This document shows, one piece after another, positions 1 to 7,762 of a stretch of 11,709 nt of DNA (the stretch's first letter is position 1; each line of letters starts with the position of its first letter). The translations under genes were made by a program, and so were the position numbers. The stretch comes from a virus (lineage: Duplodnaviria > Heunggongvirae > Uroviricota > Caudoviricetes): positions 1 to 11,709 of IMG/VR virus record IMGVR_UViG_2548876944_000019; one strand, 5' to 3'. The notes under the pieces were generated by a model. The model saw nothing but the letters and a program-made list of their open reading frames with translations, did not search any database and was not told the origin of the DNA.

Positions 1-267
1 ATGCGCAGAAAAGAATCAAACGTTAGCAGTTTGCCGGAACTCACCAATTTTGAGGTAAGCTATTCCCTAGTTACCAATGAAGTTTACTTGTCTGCATCCT
101 TCACTGATAACATGGCCTGTATACCAAACTGGCCCTTACAAGAATTTCCGGATCAACTAATATGCATTTCTCGAGCAAAAGCTATTGCCCTAATCGAAGA
201 GCTCCAGAAGACCATCGACTATATGGACGCAGGAATCGATCGACAATCAGGTAGCCTGCTCCAGTAG
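1..267 (+). CDS. Hypothetical protein (88 aa) in AT-rich cargo island
   Basis: ORF opens with ATG at window position 1 and stops at 265-267. Composition is AT-rich, unlike the tail genes. No motif recognised. The true start is uncertain because the ORF touches the window edge. Confidence 0.35.
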   Translation: MRRKESNVSSLPELTNFEVSYSLVTNEVYLSASFTDNMACIPNWPLQEFPDQLICISRAKAIALIEELQKTIDYMDAGIDRQSGSLLQ

Positions 268-400
268 CTGGCGAGTTTTATACTCGTTCCCTGCAACAAT
301 GGGCTTTTGGTAAGGCACTCACAAATAAGGAATTCGTTAAGGTTTTTGTTCTGGAGACTCTGAAAGATACAAGGAATCTGTTGATGGCTGGTTTGATCAT

Positions 401-441
401 ACTAATTAATATATTGTCAGACTCACAATATATTAATTAGT
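401..441. promoter_or_regulatory. Perfect 16-bp inverted repeat with 9-bp spacer, candidate operator
   Basis: ACTAATTAATATATTG (401-416), spacer TCAGACTCA (417-425), CAATATATTAATTAGT (426-441); the arms are exact reverse complements. It lies in the AT-rich intergenic region about 130 bp upstream of the 281-aa ORF. It is too AT-rich to be a stable terminator stem. Confidence 0.5.
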
Positions 442-568
442 GGTAGAACATAAAACCGAGTTCTTGACTTTCAATAGCTATTATATGCGATCAACAACCT
501 TAACCACCTCCTTATATTTTATGAGACACTCAAACAATTTAAATTTATGAGCAAAGGAAAATAATAAA

Positions 569-1414
569 GTGAATAAAAATCCCTGGGATATTCCAGCATG
601 GCACGCTCTGGGCCGAGAAGCATCTTTAGTTACACAGCTCATTGGTTCTGGGGCAACAGCCATAGGTAAAGCCAATTATGCAGACAAAATAGGTGAATAT
701 TACACAGCATTTTTTGGGCTTTCTGTAGGTTTTGAGAGACTTGCTAAACTAATACTTGTTGCGCACTATGCCATTGAACACAAAGGGAAAATGCCTGACG
801 AGAATATTGTAAGAAAATTTGGACATAAGCTCATTGAATTAACCAACGAGGTTGATAGCATTTCTAAAAAAATGCAACTATCTCTGAGATATTCACGTCC
901 TACACATAAAATTACCTACAAAATACTTGAATGTTTAGATTCCTTTGCTGATGCCCGACGGGGACGTTACGCAAATTTCTCCTCATTAAGCAGCCCCAAT
1001 TTAACCAATAATGAACCTATTAATAAATGGTGGGGAGAAGTAGCCGAGAGTATCCTTGAAAAACATTATTATTATACAGTTGAACAAAGACGTGTTGAAG
1101 AAAATGCTAGGTTTATCAATGCCACTCTTTCACCGTATACAACGGTCATGTATATGAATGAAAGTACCAACATTATGCAAGACCTTATATCAGCCTCCAT
1201 CCGTACTGGACAAAATACCATTGTTCAAAAGTGGGGAAGATTCTATTCTCTTAGCATCGCTCGTTGGCTTGCCACAGTATTAACAGAACTGTCTGATATA
1301 GCTTCTCATAAATATGGAATAATTAGTTTTTATGGCCTTAGTGAACATTGTTGCAGTTATATAGTTGAAGATAGTTTTTTAAAAAACAGAAAAATATGGC
1401 CACTTCGCCAATAG
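569..1414 (+). CDS. Hypothetical protein (281 aa), candidate accessory or defence cargo gene
   Basis: GTG start at 569 preceded by AAGGA at 554-558; stop TAG at 1412-1414. AT-rich relative to the tail genes. No hydrophobic membrane segments noticed. No family recognised by eye; the only weak hint is one R-x5-H pattern (RYSRPTH). Confidence 0.6.
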   Translation: MNKNPWDIPAWHALGREASLVTQLIGSGATAIGKANYADKIGEYYTAFFGLSVGFERLAKLILVAHYAIEHKGKMPDENIVRKFGHKLIELTNEVDSISKKMQLSLRYSRPTHKITYKILECLDSFADARRGRYANFSSLSSPNLTNNEPINKWWGEVAESILEKHYYYTVEQRRVEENARFINATLSPYTTVMYMNESTNIMQDLISASIRTGQNTIVQKWGRFYSLSIARWLATVLTELSDIASHKYGIISFYGLSEHCCSYIVEDSFLKNRKIWPLRQ

Positions 1415-1418
1415 TTAA

Positions 1419-1733
1419 CTAGAAAATCTGCATAAGGGGGAGAAATCCCCCACCTGTAATAACATCACTACTAAAATTAACACCTCGTTCGCGCAACTCC
1501 TCTACCAGCACGACAAGATGCCGCATACTGCGCCCCAGTCGGTCCAGTTTCCAGACCACCAGCGTGTCACCTGCCGATAATGTCCTGAGCAGCTTTTTCA
1601 GTCCTGGTCTGTCGGACTTTGTACCGCTTATCTTGTCTTCAAAAATCAGCTCACATCCTGCACAGTTCAGCGCATTACGTTGTAGATCTGTGTTCTGGTC
1701 ATTTGTTGACACACGTACATAGCCAATAAGCAT
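1419..1733 (-). pseudogene. pin: Truncated serine DNA invertase (Din family, Pin/Gin/Hin/Cin-like); catalytic N-terminal domain only
   Basis: N-terminus MLIGYVRVSTNDQNTDLQRNAL...VVWKLDRLGRS...LRERGVNF matches the resolvase/invertase catalytic domain as I recall it, with the catalytic Ser in the RVST motif. After residue 87 (nt about 1473) the sequence becomes unrelated (SSDVITGGGFLPLMQIF) and stops at 104 aa. Full-length Din invertases are about 180-190 aa and end in an HTH DNA-binding domain. Confidence 0.85.
1436..1451. terminator. GC stem-loop (GGGGGA-GAAA-TCCCCC), possible terminator at the junction of convergent genes
   Basis: 6-bp perfect stem with a GAAA loop, 22 nt after the stop of the 281-aa ORF and inside the non-native 3' tail of the truncated invertase ORF. 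The plus strand lacks a U-tract after it; the minus strand has a partial T-rich run (TTATGCAGATTTTCT). Confidence 0.3.
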
Positions 1734-1787
1734 GAGAAATAACCCTGTAAAAATCCGGGATCATGCCATCTGAGCCGAATAACTGCA

Positions 1788-1813
1788 TTTTCTAAAAGGT
1801 TGGTTTGGGAGAA
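1788..1813. other. Left inversion crossover site (gix/pix/hix-like, 26 bp), core TT at 1800-1801
   Basis: TTTTCTAAAAGG TT GGTTTGGGAGAA. The reverse complement (TTCTCCCAAACC AA CCTTTTAGAAAA) resembles the Din-family site pattern TTCxxxxAAACC-AA-GGTTTxxGAxAA recalled from hix/gix. It lies 55 bp upstream of the invertase start, as in Mu and e14. Confidence 0.6.
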
Positions 1814-2293
1814 GGCTCTGCATTACCTGTTGGTGTCCCTGTTCCGTGGCCTTCAGCCACCCCGCCGACAGGCTGGCTGAAATGCAACGGTGCGGCTTTT
1901 TCTGCTGAAGAATACCCGGAACTGGCAAAGGCTTACCCGACAAATAAATTGCCTGATTTACGCGGTGAGTTTATTCGTGGCTGGGATGACGGACGTGGAG
2001 TGGATAACGGAAGGGGATTATTAACGCTTCAGGACGGTGCGATTGTCAGTCATAACCACTATTGGGGAATCTGGACTTCACGAACTAACGACCAGACTCT
2101 GGGAAGTTTTTCAGGCACCACGATTTTAAAACAAATCACGCCCCTGTCTCCGGCCATTGACTTCGATAATTACCAAATTCCCAACCCGGCTATTACAGAG
2201 GGTGGTGTTGTTGCGGCAACGACTAAACCTGCAGGTGCGAATGAAACACGCCCACGAAATGTCGCTTTTAACTATATTGTGAGGGCTGCATAA
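1796..2293 (+). CDS. Alternative tail-fibre C-terminal (receptor-binding) segment, Sv'-like, without its own start codon
   Basis: The frame opens immediately after the TAA at 1793-1795. It has no ATG; the ORF track start at 1805 is TTG with a weak SD. It carries a tail-collar-like motif (GWLKCNGAAFSAEEYPELAKAYP). The stop TAA at 2291-2293 overlaps the ATG of the downstream Tfa gene. Confidence 0.7.
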   Translation, partial: KVGLGEGSALPVGVPVPWPSATPPTGWLKCNGAAFSAEEYPELAKAYPTNKLPDLRGEFIRGWDDGRGVDNGRGLLTLQDGAIVSHNHYWGIWTSRTNDQTLGSFSGTTILKQITPLSPAIDFDNYQIPNPAITEGGVVAATTKPAGANETRPRNVAFNYIVRAA

Positions 2294-2895
2294 TGAATAA
2301 CGCAGAATTAAACAGTGAATTAATTGCCACTATGGCAGGAGAAATTACTGTTTATAACTTTGACGTCATGAGTCGGGAGTATATTTCAGCTTCAACTGAA
2401 TATCTTGCTGTTGGTGTCGGCATTCCGGCATATTCCTGTTTAGATGCTCCAGGCACCTACAAAGCTGGTTATGCAATCTGCCGCTCTGCAGATTTTAACT
2501 CATGGGAATATGTACCAGACCATCGCGGTGAAATCGTCTATAACACCGAAACGGGAGACGCCAAAGAAATCACAACTCCGGGTGATTACCCCGAAAAAAC
2601 AACCACTATCGCCCCGTTAACGCCATACGATAAATGGGATGGTGAGAAATGGGTGACGGATACTGAGACACAGCATAGCGCCGCAGTAGACGCGGCAGAA
2701 GCACAACGTCAGTCACTGATTGATACTGCAATGGCTTCCATTAGTCTGATTCAACTGAAATTGCAGGCCGGGCGGAAGCTGATGCAGGCAGAGACCACCC
2801 GACTTAACACTGTGCTGGATTACATTGACGCGGTGACGGCAACAGATACCAGTACCGCGCCGGATGTCATCTGGCCTGAACTGCCGGAGGAGTAG
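2293..2895 (+). CDS. Tail-fibre assembly protein (Tfa/U'-type chaperone) paired with the alternative fibre tip
   Basis: 200 aa, coupled to the upstream Sv' frame by a TAATG overlap. The C-terminus (LDYIDAVTATDTSTAPDVIWPELPEE) is the conserved Tfa C-terminal motif. It sits convergent to the other Tfa gene. Confidence 0.8.
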   Translation: MNNAELNSELIATMAGEITVYNFDVMSREYISASTEYLAVGVGIPAYSCLDAPGTYKAGYAICRSADFNSWEYVPDHRGEIVYNTETGDAKEITTPGDYPEKTTTIAPLTPYDKWDGEKWVTDTETQHSAAVDAAEAQRQSLIDTAMASISLIQLKLQAGRKLMQAETTRLNTVLDYIDAVTATDTSTAPDVIWPELPEE

Positions 2896-3313
2896 GCCAT
2901 TCAATATCTGGCGCACTGGAAGTATCGACCAGTTCCAGTGCGTCCAGATAATCCAGCCACAAATTATATTGCGCCAGTTCGTCACCTTTCAGACGACCAA
3001 TAGCGGCTTTACCGGGCCACTGCTTACTATTGATATAATAGTTAGCCTGCTCAATACGGGACCTTTTTTCGGCGTCAGCAGTTCTAACAAGTTCTTCGTG
3101 AGTCGGTTTAGGTTCATCTACCCATTCAGGGAAGCCATCATTCCCTGCTGCACGTATCTTGCCATCCGGTGCATTTTCTGCTTTCCAGGAGATAAATCCG
3201 TCCTCATCAAAATCGACTCCCTCATCAGGCCATTGCCCGCTTGCCAGGTAGCTATCCTTAAGGGAGTAAGGGAAAAATTCGTTTGTAACTGCTGAGTATC
3301 TGTATTTGGTCAT
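2867..3313 (-). CDS. Tail-fibre assembly protein (Tfa/U-type chaperone) for the currently expressed fibre
   Basis: 148 aa, immediately downstream of the fibre gene (fibre stop codon 3316-3318, ATG at 3313). The C-terminus (LWLDYLDALELVDTSSAPDIEWPTPP) is the conserved Tfa motif. Confidence 0.85.
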   Translation of the reverse strand: MTKYRYSAVTNEFFPYSLKDSYLASGQWPDEGVDFDEDGFISWKAENAPDGKIRAAGNDGFPEWVDEPKPTHEELVRTADAEKRSRIEQANYYINSKQWPGKAAIGRLKGDELAQYNLWLDYLDALELVDTSSAPDIEWPTPPAVQAR

Positions 3314-3315
3314 AT

Positions 3316-3987
3316 TTATTTCCCTATGGCTATCCAGGCAATTTCTGCTCCTGGAGTGCTCCAGTTGGCAATTCGGATTGTTGAAAGATCAGCTGACGAC
3401 ACGCCAACTGGTTTTGAAGGTGAGGGATCTGAACCCCAGAACGAAGCAAGAACAATATAGCCTGAGGTAGTAAAAGGGATTGGCAGCGTCCTTACCGCAA
3501 TCTGTCCTGCCGCCATGGTTGTCCTCCCGCTCTGAATAATTGTCCCGTCTGGAAACTTTACCCACCCACTACCACTGGTCCATGCAGACATGTCTGGTAG
3601 TTGGTTAGCACCTGTTCCGACATCTCGTTTCGCCGCTTCGCCCAAACCAAGATTTGAGAGGGCCGTTTTCACCGTGCCATCCGATTTGATATCACCAAAC
3701 GGATTCTTGCGGCTCAGGTATTCAACAGCAAACCCCGATCCCAGCAATTCAACAAAACCGGGCAGATCACCATTATCAAGCACATCCCGTTGCGTTTTGT
3801 CACTTACAAACTGGGCCAGAGCTGCAGCAATAAAGCTGGCCTGCCGAATAACCTTATTGACTTGCGCACTGGATGCTTTCCCTGCTGTAAATCCGGATAA
3901 AAGCGCAGGCAACGCTTCCCATTCCTCCTGCGACATAACATTGGCATTTTTACCCGTTGCGAATGCTTTAAAGTCATTTTTTGCCAT
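3316..3987 (-). CDS. Tail-fibre protein (constant N-terminal part fused to the currently oriented variable C-terminal part)
   Basis: The ATG at 3987-3985 overlaps the TGA of the upstream gene (ATGA), so it is preferred over the in-frame ATG at 4005 given in the ORF track. The right crossover site lies in frame inside it (ALSNLGLGE). It is followed by a Tfa gene. Confidence 0.8.
3637..3662. other. Right inversion crossover site (inverted relative to the left site), core AA at 3649-3650
   Basis: TTCGCCCAAACC AA GATTTGAGAGGG. Its reverse complement matches the left site at 13 of 14 positions across core plus inner half (TTGGTTTGGG[C/A]GAA). It lies inside the tail-fibre gene at the constant/variable junction. 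Confidence 0.6.
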
Positions 3988-4667
3988 CAGAGTAATACTC
4001 CCCATGCCCCTACATCAAAACCACTGATGAATTCGTTATCCATATCAAAACCAAAAAATTTTGAACCTTCCGATGGGGTTTCCACCGAAGGTGTTTCAAT
4101 GCCACCCGCCCACACCCCGGCGGCTTTTACTGTGAGATATCCCTGTTTAATTGCAGCAATTAACTCACGCGATACATCTGAAATATCAGTATCAGGAAAG
4201 ACCCAGACCGATATCGTCATGTCCTGGTTATCGACAATCTGCATTCGCAGCCCGGATCCTGCTGTTGCCGCGTCAAGAATTGCCGGAAGCGAATCATTCC
4301 GTCCGTCCCAGTTATTAATCGCAATCTTCGCTTTAAGAATGACACGATAAGTTTCATCGCTGAGATACATGTATCCAGAATCAGGATCATATGGCCCCTG
4401 CCATACCCCCTGATCATATCCAAGCCCGTCGGTATCCCAGCTGAAATAGACACCTGAGATAGGCTGGCTGACAACACGGCTACGTCCGATCCACAATCCC
4501 AGAATGTCAAGTTGCACACCAACCGCAGAGTCAATATCAAATGCAGTAATCAGCCCTCTGGTGGCAGCCGCAACATCAATAAGTGGCCGGGTCATCAGAT
4601 CAACATGCGCAAGAAATTTAGGTTTGGTGGCGTGGTAGTTCGTGATTAGTTCGGTGTATTTGCTCAT
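3987..4667 (-). CDS. Baseplate/tail protein, gpI-like (Mu gp48 / P2 gpI position)
   Basis: 226 aa; sits between the gpJ-like gene and the tail fibre; ATGA overlaps at both ends. Assigned by position and size, not by a recognised motif. Confidence 0.6.
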
Positions 4668-7036: not shown

Positions 7037-7762
7037 TCAGTTTATAAGCCCCATCTTACCGGCGCTTCGATAGTTAATTACATCGCCTGAAGAGCCGCAA
7101 GGCACAGCTACAGTCGACATTTTGACAAATCCTTTACCGCCCTGCTTTTGGCATAAAGTGGCATGCATTTTTGCTAAACGCGCAGCATGGCCAAAATCAA
7201 TTTTGGTTCCGTAAGTTGAATCTCGTAGAGCTGCTTTTTTTGCAATTCCGGTAATATTTTTGTCTTTAATTACAGATGCAAACAAACTCAAATCATTTCC
7301 AATTTGATTGAAGCAAGTACGATTAATATCAACATCGGCATACGCTGAAATGCGTTTGCAATCTGAGATCTGAGAAAGCACAGATGTGTTAACTAGTTGC
7401 AAATTTAATTTGTAGTCACCGACATAGGTATAAACTTTGTTAGGGTCCGTGGTTCCCGGATAACGAGTTACGAATGGAATGCTGTTGTACGCATCTCGCA
7501 AAGATTCTGCCCCCTTACTTGTAAGCTCGTTCCCAACACCAGCAACGATAACCTCTGGATGTGAAACTTCAAATTGAGACTTTTCTTCGCGCTGTATTTG
7601 AAGCCTGCTTTTCTGGCTCTCCTCAACTTGCTTATCGTACGCTTGTTTTTCTTCATTTTTTTGGGATAGCCATTTTTCCTGCGCTTTAGCACCATTAGGA
7701 TCCCAACTACATGAAGTTAAAAAAAGAGAAAATACGATTGTGGTTATCGCAAGCCTGCTCAC
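7037..7762 (-). CDS. Predicted outer-membrane lipoprotein (241 aa), moron inserted in the baseplate operon
   Basis: GTG start at 7762 with GAGG 9 nt upstream. Signal peptide ends in lipobox LTSC with Ser at +2. A charged linker (KAQEKWLSQKNEEKQAYDKQVEESQK...) is followed by a four-Cys globular region. The gene is visibly AT-richer than the flanking tail genes and is followed by its own terminator. Confidence 0.75.
   Translation of the reverse strand: MSRLAITTIVFSLFLTSCSWDPNGAKAQEKWLSQKNEEKQAYDKQVEESQKSRLQIQREEKSQFEVSHPEVIVAGVGNELTSKGAESLRDAYNSIPFVTRYPGTTDPNKVYTYVGDYKLNLQLVNTSVLSQISDCKRISAYADVDINRTCFNQIGNDLSLFASVIKDKNITGIAKKAALRDSTYGTKIDFGHAARLAKMHATLCQKQGGKGFVKMSTVAVPCGSSGDVINYRSAGKMGLIN

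Follow-up and report, generated by a model that had tools for sequence, protein, structure and literature searches.

The window considered here is the whole stretch of 11,709 nucleotides taken from the IMG/VR virus record IMGVR_UViG_2548876944_000019 (Caudoviricetes), which corresponds to the metagenome scaffold ERZ28630596 scaffold_264, and its tail-fibre locus is the subject of this account. Starting from the fibre gene and proceeding towards the beginning of the window, the locus consists of a constant fibre shaft, the tip currently fused to it and the tail-fibre assembly (Tfa) chaperone of that tip, followed on the opposite strand by a second chaperone and a second, silent tip, and finally by a truncated serine DNA invertase gene (pin′) and an orphan open reading frame (ORF) of 281 amino acids (aa) (Table 1). 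The two tip and chaperone cassettes are enclosed by a pair of inverted crossover sites, and the stretch from 1800 to 3650 is a Pin/Gin/Cin-type (Din-family) invertible tail-fibre segment, homologous to the P segment of prophage e14. The surrounding backbone comprises the genes for the shaft, a DUF2612 wedge protein, baseplate J, the spike and the tape measure, and belongs to a myovirus-type prophage of Escherichia coli of ~42 kb, which is inserted between yfhL and yfhH. The prophage of a relative is annotated with integrase, DNA polymerase, Q antiterminator, lysis, terminase, portal and capsid genes and also with sheath, tube and baseplate genes, and judged from this annotation the family looks complete rather than cryptic.

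Table 1. Features of the tail-fibre locus, with positions in the window
Feature	Position	Strand	Description
Orphan 281-aa ORF	569..1414	+	Replaces the 3′ half of pin; context, outside the switch
pin′ (truncated serine DNA invertase ORF)	1419..1733	-	104 aa; residues 1-89 97% identical to PinE (BLASTP)
Candidate Fis-binding enhancer	1649..1712		Putative; in the retained 5′ part of pin′
Left crossover site	1788..1813		26 bp; TTTTCTAAAAGG-TT-GGTTTGGGAGAA; core 1800-1801
Silent alternative tip	1796..2293	+	StfE-type; in-segment part 1802-2290 (163 aa); stop 2291-2293
Invertible segment	1800..3650		1851 bp including both 2-bp cores; two convergent tip and chaperone cassettes
Chaperone of the silent tip	2293..2895	+	TfaE-type tail-fibre assembly chaperone; 200 aa; Caudo_TAP
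Chaperone of the expressed tip	2867..3313	-	Tail-fibre assembly chaperone; 148 aa; Caudo_TAP, E 4.8e-29
Expressed variable tip	3316..3648	-	Residues 120-229 and stop; gp53-like / R-type-pyocin ‘foot’
Expressed fibre	4005-3316	-	229 aa; 119-aa constant shaft and gp53-like / R-pyocin-foot tip
Right crossover site	3637..3662		26 bp; TTCGCCCAAACC-AA-GATTTGAGAGGG; core 3649-3650
Constant shaft	3649..4005	-	Residues 1-119; outside the segment; fuses to whichever tip faces the shaft

The crossover sites form the top inverted repeat of the region, in which positions 1791–1814 are paired with 3636–3659. The sequence TTCNCCCAAACCAA is found exactly twice, in inverted orientation, at 1800–1813 on the minus strand and at 3637–3650 on the plus strand, when only 0.03 matches are expected in shuffled sequence and two matches were reached in none of 200 shuffles. 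Read as the reverse complement of 1788–1813 the left site becomes TTCTCCCAAACC-AA-CCTTTTAGAAAA, and it holds the 16-nt e14 repeat TTGGTTTGGGAGAAGG in the form given in PMC12529663. The right site falls within the fibre gene, where the constant part meets the variable part and the codons run ...A-L-S-N-L|G-L-G-E..., and the left site reads ...V|G-L-G-E-G-S-A-L-P.... With this codon phase at the two sites the reading frame is kept on exchange at the central dinucleotide, and inversion of 1800–3650 in silico converts the 229-aa fibre into an in-frame fibre of 282 aa, composed of the 119-aa shaft and a 163-aa collar tip. The locus therefore displays most of the hallmarks of the Din family, namely inverted sites of ~26 bp with conserved half-sites and the same 2-bp core (TT/AA), a site placed within the fibre ORF so that the tips are swapped in frame, and two opposed tip and chaperone cassettes, but it lacks an adjoining full-length serine invertase acting in cis.

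Both orientations of the segment exist in near-identical genomes. The opposite state of the window allele was located through a protein search with the collar tip, which returned an E. coli protein at NCBI (P0122, 276 aa) that equals the predicted inverted fibre from its second methionine onwards, including a rare sequence variant. In the contig encoding this protein (L008, from E. coli GCA_036927655.1) the same prophage, with the same pin′ and 281-aa ORF, lies next to yfhH; there the collar fibre and its chaperone occupy the expressed position, and the gp53-like tip is the silent one. Aligned with this contig the window breaks into three blocks, the middle one of which (1791–3659) lies on the opposite strand, and after inversion in silico the two align over 9993 bp as a single block that contains 0 mismatches and one gap. 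The two sites differ only at 1811 (A/C) and in their outer half-sites, so the exchange must fall within 1800–1810, where the predicted core also lies. Another natural pair is provided by strains 00_3230 and 97-3250 (L002 and L004), the flanks of which are 100% identical over 3314 and 2565 bp, truncated invertase included, with the internal 1623 bp 99.9% identical and inverted. Among the four best-matching complete genomes the collar-type tip lies next to the invertase stub in two (L001 and L002) and is fused to the shaft in the other two (L003 and L004). A junction query for the opposite orientation with the gp53-like tip of the window itself gave 0 complete genomes at a coverage of at least 80%, because this tip allele is rare.

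The preliminary description of this DNA had recognised the plus-strand frame from 1796 as a silent alternative tip coupled to a chaperone, and it proved to be correct in the details. The frame contains no ATG; it opens straight after a TAA at 1793–1795 that sits in the outer half of the left crossover site and ends an upstream ATG-led frame, and it is closed by another TAA. The sequence GWLKCNGAAFSAEEYPELAKAYP, which had been described as a collar-type motif, falls in the Pfam Collar domain (PF07484, E 8.5e-16, 58.1 bits with a gathering cut-off of 24). Besides the tail-collar domain the tip has a single HxH motif; its middle is hypervariable and its C-terminus, ETRPRNVAFNYIVRAA, conserved; in the alignment of the collar family H84 and H86 are nearly invariant, and the R150–A162 core of ETRPRNVAFNYIVRAA is largely so. 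The silent tip shares 59% identity overall with K-12 StfE, the first 75 aa being identical and the distal part divergent. The 200-aa partner is a Caudo_TAP protein (PF02413, E 4.8e-30; phrog_105, E 1.3e-94) with 86% identity to K-12 TfaE, and its start shares one base with the stop codon of the tip (TAATG), an overlap through which the tip and its TfaE are translationally coupled. Both tfa genes are found directly 3′ of their own tip, with the TAATG overlap in one cassette and a 2-nt gap in the other, and they converge so that their 3′ ends overlap by 29 nt. Their Caudo_TAP scores are 104.8 and 101.6 bits (cut-off 22.1), and the part common to the 148-aa and 200-aa proteins consists only of the C-terminal ~80 aa, at 36% identity.

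In the orientation of the window the collar tip and its TfaE are silent, since both a start codon and a detectable promoter are lacking. Scanning of the plus strand ahead of the silent tip gave no sigma-70-like promoter, with counts equal to chance, and in the promoter and terminator scan as a whole the match counts were no higher than chance. The earlier claim that one tip is expressed and the other silent is supported. The plus-strand frame is free of disabling mutations. Fibres that carry an annotation as expressed in other isolates (P0121 and P0122, of 276 aa each, from the protein search with the 163-aa tip) end in 163 aa that match the silent tip with 100% identity, which rules out a pseudogene. 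The TAA just ahead of the frame is an allelic feature. The outer half of the left site is CTAAAAGG in the window and in strain JE86-ST05, and CATAAACG in K-12 e14, in Escherichia phage pro483 and in three of the four yfhH-prophage relatives checked, with M-17 carrying CTTAAACG, which is also stop-free; it is the presence of CTAAAAGG instead of CATAAACG that creates the TAA. In most relatives, K-12 included, an ATG lies 13 codons upstream and the left site is read through into the proximal tip (MPF...IFINVGLGEG...), a frame that has been named StfE/StfE2 (PMC12529663). As the TAA is positioned outside the segment, this ATG-led frame is blocked in both orientations.

The fibre that is expressed in the window ends in a tip of a different kind. 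Its last 110 residues (3648–3319), which lie beyond the right site, belong to Gp53-like_C (PF21882, E 3.5e-9, 37.5 bits with a cut-off of 24.9) and represent a rare allele, the nearest relatives being ~73% identical. From residue 98 onwards the fibre is 35% identical to K-12 StfP, and across 27 homologues its N-terminus is invariant and its C-terminus hypervariable. That the C-terminal ~110 residues of the expressed fibre differ from the silent tip, as had been stated, is seen from BLASTP, which finds no similarity between the two (best E 0.14), and from their assignment to different Pfam families, Collar for the silent and Gp53-like_C for the expressed tip. By sequence the silent tip matches the needle tip of T4 gp37 (2XGF, E 8e-17) across the collar, the HxH motif and the C-terminal strand, so that the HxH and C-terminal stretches both align to 2XGF, and it also matches T4 gp12, whereas the expressed fibre has a weak match to the R2 pyocin fibre alone.

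The structural comparison agrees with this division. Foldseek retrieves 2XGF (E 1.1e-5), 1OCY and 5IV5 for the silent tip and 6CT8 (E 3.8e-6), 6CL6, 6CXB and 4MTM, with a probability of 1.00, for the expressed tip, the latter being the fibre feet of R2/R1 pyocins and gp53 of phage AP22, and the two match lists have no entry in common. The AlphaFold models used were of monomers. Their usable parts are the gp53-like domain (residues 140–229, with pLDDT ~75–85) and the collar (~76–87), whereas the predictions for the shaft and for the middle of the collar tip cannot be relied on, as is usual when the natural form is an intertwined trimer. Every available test, whether of sequence, Pfam family or structural matches, shows the tips to be unrelated, and they are neither homologues nor alike in fold. 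When aligned, each of the tip families is conserved proximally and hypervariable distally, which is the usual pattern of receptor-binding ends. On the basis of the unrelated folds, and by analogy with Mu, P1 and carotovoricin, the two tips are predicted to bind different receptors, and the prophage would then encode the two host-range specificities that had been proposed for it.

The truncation of the invertase gene was overlooked in the preliminary description. Homology of pin′ to PinE ends at window position 1467, after which 15 unrelated residues follow, such that 89 of the 184 codons are kept. The Pfam Resolvase profile is matched over positions 2–97 of 145 only, and residues 90–184, which make up the remainder of the catalytic domain and the DNA-binding domain, are missing. 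Loci with an intact pinE likewise begin to align at the nucleotide level at 1467; the query with the junction of the present orientation was dominated by such loci and is of use only for placing the truncation point. In relatives the same gene carries the PGAP label ‘incomplete, missing C-terminus’. It was insertion of, or replacement by, the 281-aa ORF that removed the 3′ half of pin. Of 5426 complete E. coli genomes, 43 have the resulting pin′::orf281 junction and 310 have the shaft/DUF2612 module. Because other members of the prophage family keep the full-length 184-aa pinE, the truncation is the derived state and, as both natural pairs share the truncated gene, both inversions postdate it. 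Switching has evidently continued without a functional invertase in cis.

Since one and the same truncated gene accompanies both orientations, the flipping is most likely the work of a related invertase that acts in trans from another part of the host genome. That Gin, Cin, Pin and Hin can stand in for one another has long been established. A direct precedent is PinQ of prophage Qin, which inverts the P segment of e14 though it is only 38% identical to PinE (PMC12529663). The truncation has left 267 bp of pin in place (1467–1733), covering the usual position of the Fis-dependent enhancer for this class of systems. Within this region two 15-mers of the form G-N13-C, a degenerate motif, are centred on 1656 and 1705, 49 bp apart, with the nearer one 95.5 bp from the centre of the left site. 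In their spacing and distance these candidate sites resemble the enhancer of Hin, which is found ~100 bp from hixL (PMC3798978).

The explanation for the locus as a whole, which is considered very probable, is that of an e14-P-type fibre switch on a myovirus-type prophage at yfhH, the two tips of which are alternately expressed. The fibre promoter, the start codon and the 119-aa shaft are situated outside the segment, and the tip and chaperone cassette that faces the shaft is the one expressed. In the orientation of the window this is the gp53-like, R-pyocin-foot tip with the 148-aa Tfa, with the collar tip and TfaE opposed. Strand exchange at the central TT/AA dinucleotide of both 26-bp sites would flip the segment, fusing the shaft in frame to the collar tip to give the 282-aa fibre and silencing the gp53-like tip. 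An invertase supplied in trans would use the remaining sites and probably also the remaining enhancer DNA. In a host without another invertase, the expression of only one tip could represent a locked state. For the lineage concerned (43 of 5426 genomes) it is tentatively suggested, with a likelihood put somewhat below even, that the fibre switch depends on an invertase from another resident prophage or plasmid, and that the 281-aa orphan is perhaps an accessory or defence gene.

A number of observations weigh against this explanation. No trans-acting invertase was identified in the space searched, which was the window, a 12-kb metagenome scaffold. In strain 00_3230 the 4.7-kb query matched one place only, from which it follows that this strain has no close pinE copy (about 85% nucleotide identity or above) and, therefore, that any helper invertase there must be distant. 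The right site departs from the consensus of its relatives at four positions, and these deviations might reduce its efficiency. The Fis assignment is weak, in that the motif scan has a low specificity and gives three such pairs within 334 bp. The overall pLDDT of the two structure models is low (59.9 and 56.6). Finally, the records ON470579, ON470588 and ON470593 (vB_EcoM-606R2, 611R5 and 683R1), which carry the 281-aa ORF and the same truncated ‘DNA invertase’ (315 nt), were rejected as proof of virions, as the inclusion of the host genes tadA, yfhb and yfhH shows them to be prophage-region predictions. The deviant right site, the absence of a second invertase from the 11.7-kb window and a pin′ without residues 90–184, the DNA-binding domain among them, are also what would be seen if the segment had been locked since the truncation, with the collar tip and TfaE as decaying silent passengers and the opposite orientations as rare historical events. 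Such a frozen relic is unlikely, however, given that the silent cassette is unmutated in comparison with expressed copies, that two opposite orientations of one allele, with 0 mismatches in 10 kb, indicate a very recent flip, later than the truncation, that a second strain pair has the same pattern, and that the best-matching complete genomes are split two and two by orientation.

Inversion might alternatively benefit the host, by making a small invertase-proximal chimera akin to StfE2 that masks outer-membrane receptors and so blocks the adsorption of other phages. Receptor masking of this sort has been reported for the homologous e14 segment (PMC12529663), and the 13-codon ATG-led leader (MPF..IFINV) into the proximal tip in most relatives would lend itself to such a product. 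In the window allele, though, the TAA at 1793–1795 breaks that frame whichever way the segment lies and disfavours a StfE2-like role; no promoter-like site was found in the scan upstream of the proximal tip, and with a prophage family that looks complete, not cryptic, the classical host-range role is simpler. The host-benefit explanation is for these reasons regarded as highly improbable. The least credible alternative is that the differences in orientation reflect RecA-dependent recombination between short repeats, or mis-assembly, and not site-specific inversion, a view to which the lack of a demonstrated active invertase here gives some room. The two sites share only 10 consecutive identical bases (TTGGTTTGGG) in the window allele, which is far less than homologous recombination usually needs, and the interval of exchange holds the centre of a canonical 26-bp invertase site. 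As for mis-assembly, the repeats are too short to confuse assemblers, and independent assemblies of 97-3250 agree.

As an invertible fibre switch, the locus finds its closest parallel in the P segment of e14 (stfP-tfaP / tfaE-stfE, pinE), which has been described in PMC554175 (Plasterk & van de Putte 1985), PMC331406 (Mehta et al. 2004), PMC4272514 and PMC12529663. The gene order is the same, running from shaft, tip and tfa through the opposite-strand tfa and tip to pin (stfP-tfaP-tfaE-stfE-pinE-mcrA in e14), as are the 29-nt overlap of the tfa genes and the 16-nt repeat at the left site. Moreover, the module from 1467 to 3034 is 96.9% identical to an e14-like locus with an intact pinE in strain JE86-ST05. 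Whilst the switch is shared, the shaft and the whole backbone are not, the window representing a DUF2612/baseplate-J myovirus at yfhH and e14 a lambdoid prophage at icd. The distal ~90 aa of the window's collar tip diverge from StfE, its pin is truncated, and the ATG-led ‘StfE’ frame of K-12 is abolished in it by the TAA of the left site. As shaft, baseplate and integration site all differ, the possibility that the window is e14 itself was ruled out. A further relative is the P2-like Escherichia phage pro483 (NC_028943), to which window positions 1473–3141 are 91% identical at the nucleotide level over a region comprising the 5′ end of the invertase gene, a tail-collar fibre protein and two tfa genes; in contrast to the window, pro483 has a full-length invertase of 197 aa and a P2-type fibre shaft of 399 aa.

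Invertible tail-fibre segments have long been known from Mu (G), P1 (C) and e14 (P). In the G segment of Mu (Sv-U / U′-S′v, gin) and the C segment of P1 (cin) the constant part of the fibre is outside and two cassettes of tip and assembly protein are inside, with a serine invertase gene beside one site and a Fis-dependent enhancer. The window follows the same switch logic with different tip and shaft sequences, but the functional cis invertase of Mu and P1 has been lost from it. The Fis-dependent enhancer of the Hin/Gin/Cin class is described in PMC3798978. The tips themselves have counterparts of other origins. The collar, the first HxH and the C-terminal ...AFNYIVR.A strand of T4 gp37 (2XGF), together with T4 gp12 (1OCY), align with the silent tip, although this tip is far shorter and has a hypervariable middle of ~70 aa in place of a long needle with several HxH repeats. 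Unlike its T4 counterparts, it is also paired with a Tfa chaperone of the lambda gpK type; the fibre chaperones of T4 are gp38 and gp57. The expressed tip shares the Gp53-like_C domain and a predicted beta-sandwich with the R-type pyocin foot (6CT8, 6CL6, 6CXB) and with gp53 of Acinetobacter phage AP22 (4MTM), but the sequence identity is 23–29% and the model of the expressed tip is of moderate confidence.

The switch of the window is in these respects a textbook mechanism, and its cassette is a direct homologue of StfE/TfaE. The sole somewhat unusual aspect is that, on comparative evidence, switching has evidently persisted after the loss of the cis invertase. The locus offers a clean natural example of this, with the same allele, identical over 10 kb, in both orientations after invertase loss, and the persistence fits the recent evidence that the invertase of one cryptic prophage (PinQ) flips the segment of another (e14). 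Should supply in trans be true, one mobile element would dictate the host range of another, or its surface-masking phenotype. There are also practical consequences, since a silent tip is often annotated as an independent ‘phage tail protein’ gene, which calls for caution in annotation, and predictions of prophage host range should consider both orientations.

The crossover site serves in a further capacity. With ...NLGLGE|GSALPVG... as the junction, an identical collar tip is fused to a minimum of four further shafts (260, 258, 253 and 286 aa) in E. coli prophages (P0127, P0132, P0133 and P0145), which brings the unrelated shafts that carry it to at least five, and it is also frequent in the form of ‘silent’ gene calls of 176 and 162 aa. 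Because the same tip is joined there to several unrelated shafts, the invertase site is a module-exchange joint too, a recombination joint that on these sequence comparisons moves tip cassettes between phage families.

The 281-aa ORF that interrupts pin has no match in Pfam, PHROGs, PADLOC, NCBIfam or the PDB. The position beyond pin is a cargo slot, occupied by mcrA in e14, by a GIY-YIG LEM-3-like gene in JE86-ST05 and by another hypothetical gene in JNEC-KY208, and the 281-aa ORF, the occupant of this classical slot in the window, is possibly an accessory or defence gene. A hairpin, GGGGGAGAAATCCCCC, is found at 1436–1451, ~20 nt past the stop of this ORF and within the unrelated 15-codon tail of pin′; it probably belongs to the inserted DNA and may be its terminator. 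On the other side, in the AT-rich gap between the 281-aa ORF and an ORF of 88 aa, a self-inverted BLAST match revealed a perfect 16-bp inverted repeat, CTAATTAATATATTGT ... ACAATATATTAATTAG, with a 7-nt spacer (window ~402–440), which could be an operator or a terminator. The 88-aa ORF (1–267, plus strand) lies at the end of the prophage and is conserved beside yfhH in relatives; its sole match is phrog_17793, of unknown function (E 5.8e-46), and nothing was found for it in Pfam, PADLOC, NCBIfam or the PDB.

Elsewhere in the window, a 241-aa ORF (7037–7762, minus strand) with a lipoprotein-type signal (MSRLAITTIVFSLFLTSC...) lies between the baseplate-hub-like and spike genes, and is without a match in Pfam, PHROGs, PADLOC, NCBIfam and the PDB. 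The same slot is filled by DUF2335 in M-17, by DUF4282 and a hypothetical gene in 00_3230 and Z1323CEC0009, and by two hypothetical genes in WP3-W18, and the 241-aa ORF is a moron-like insertion in the tail operon.

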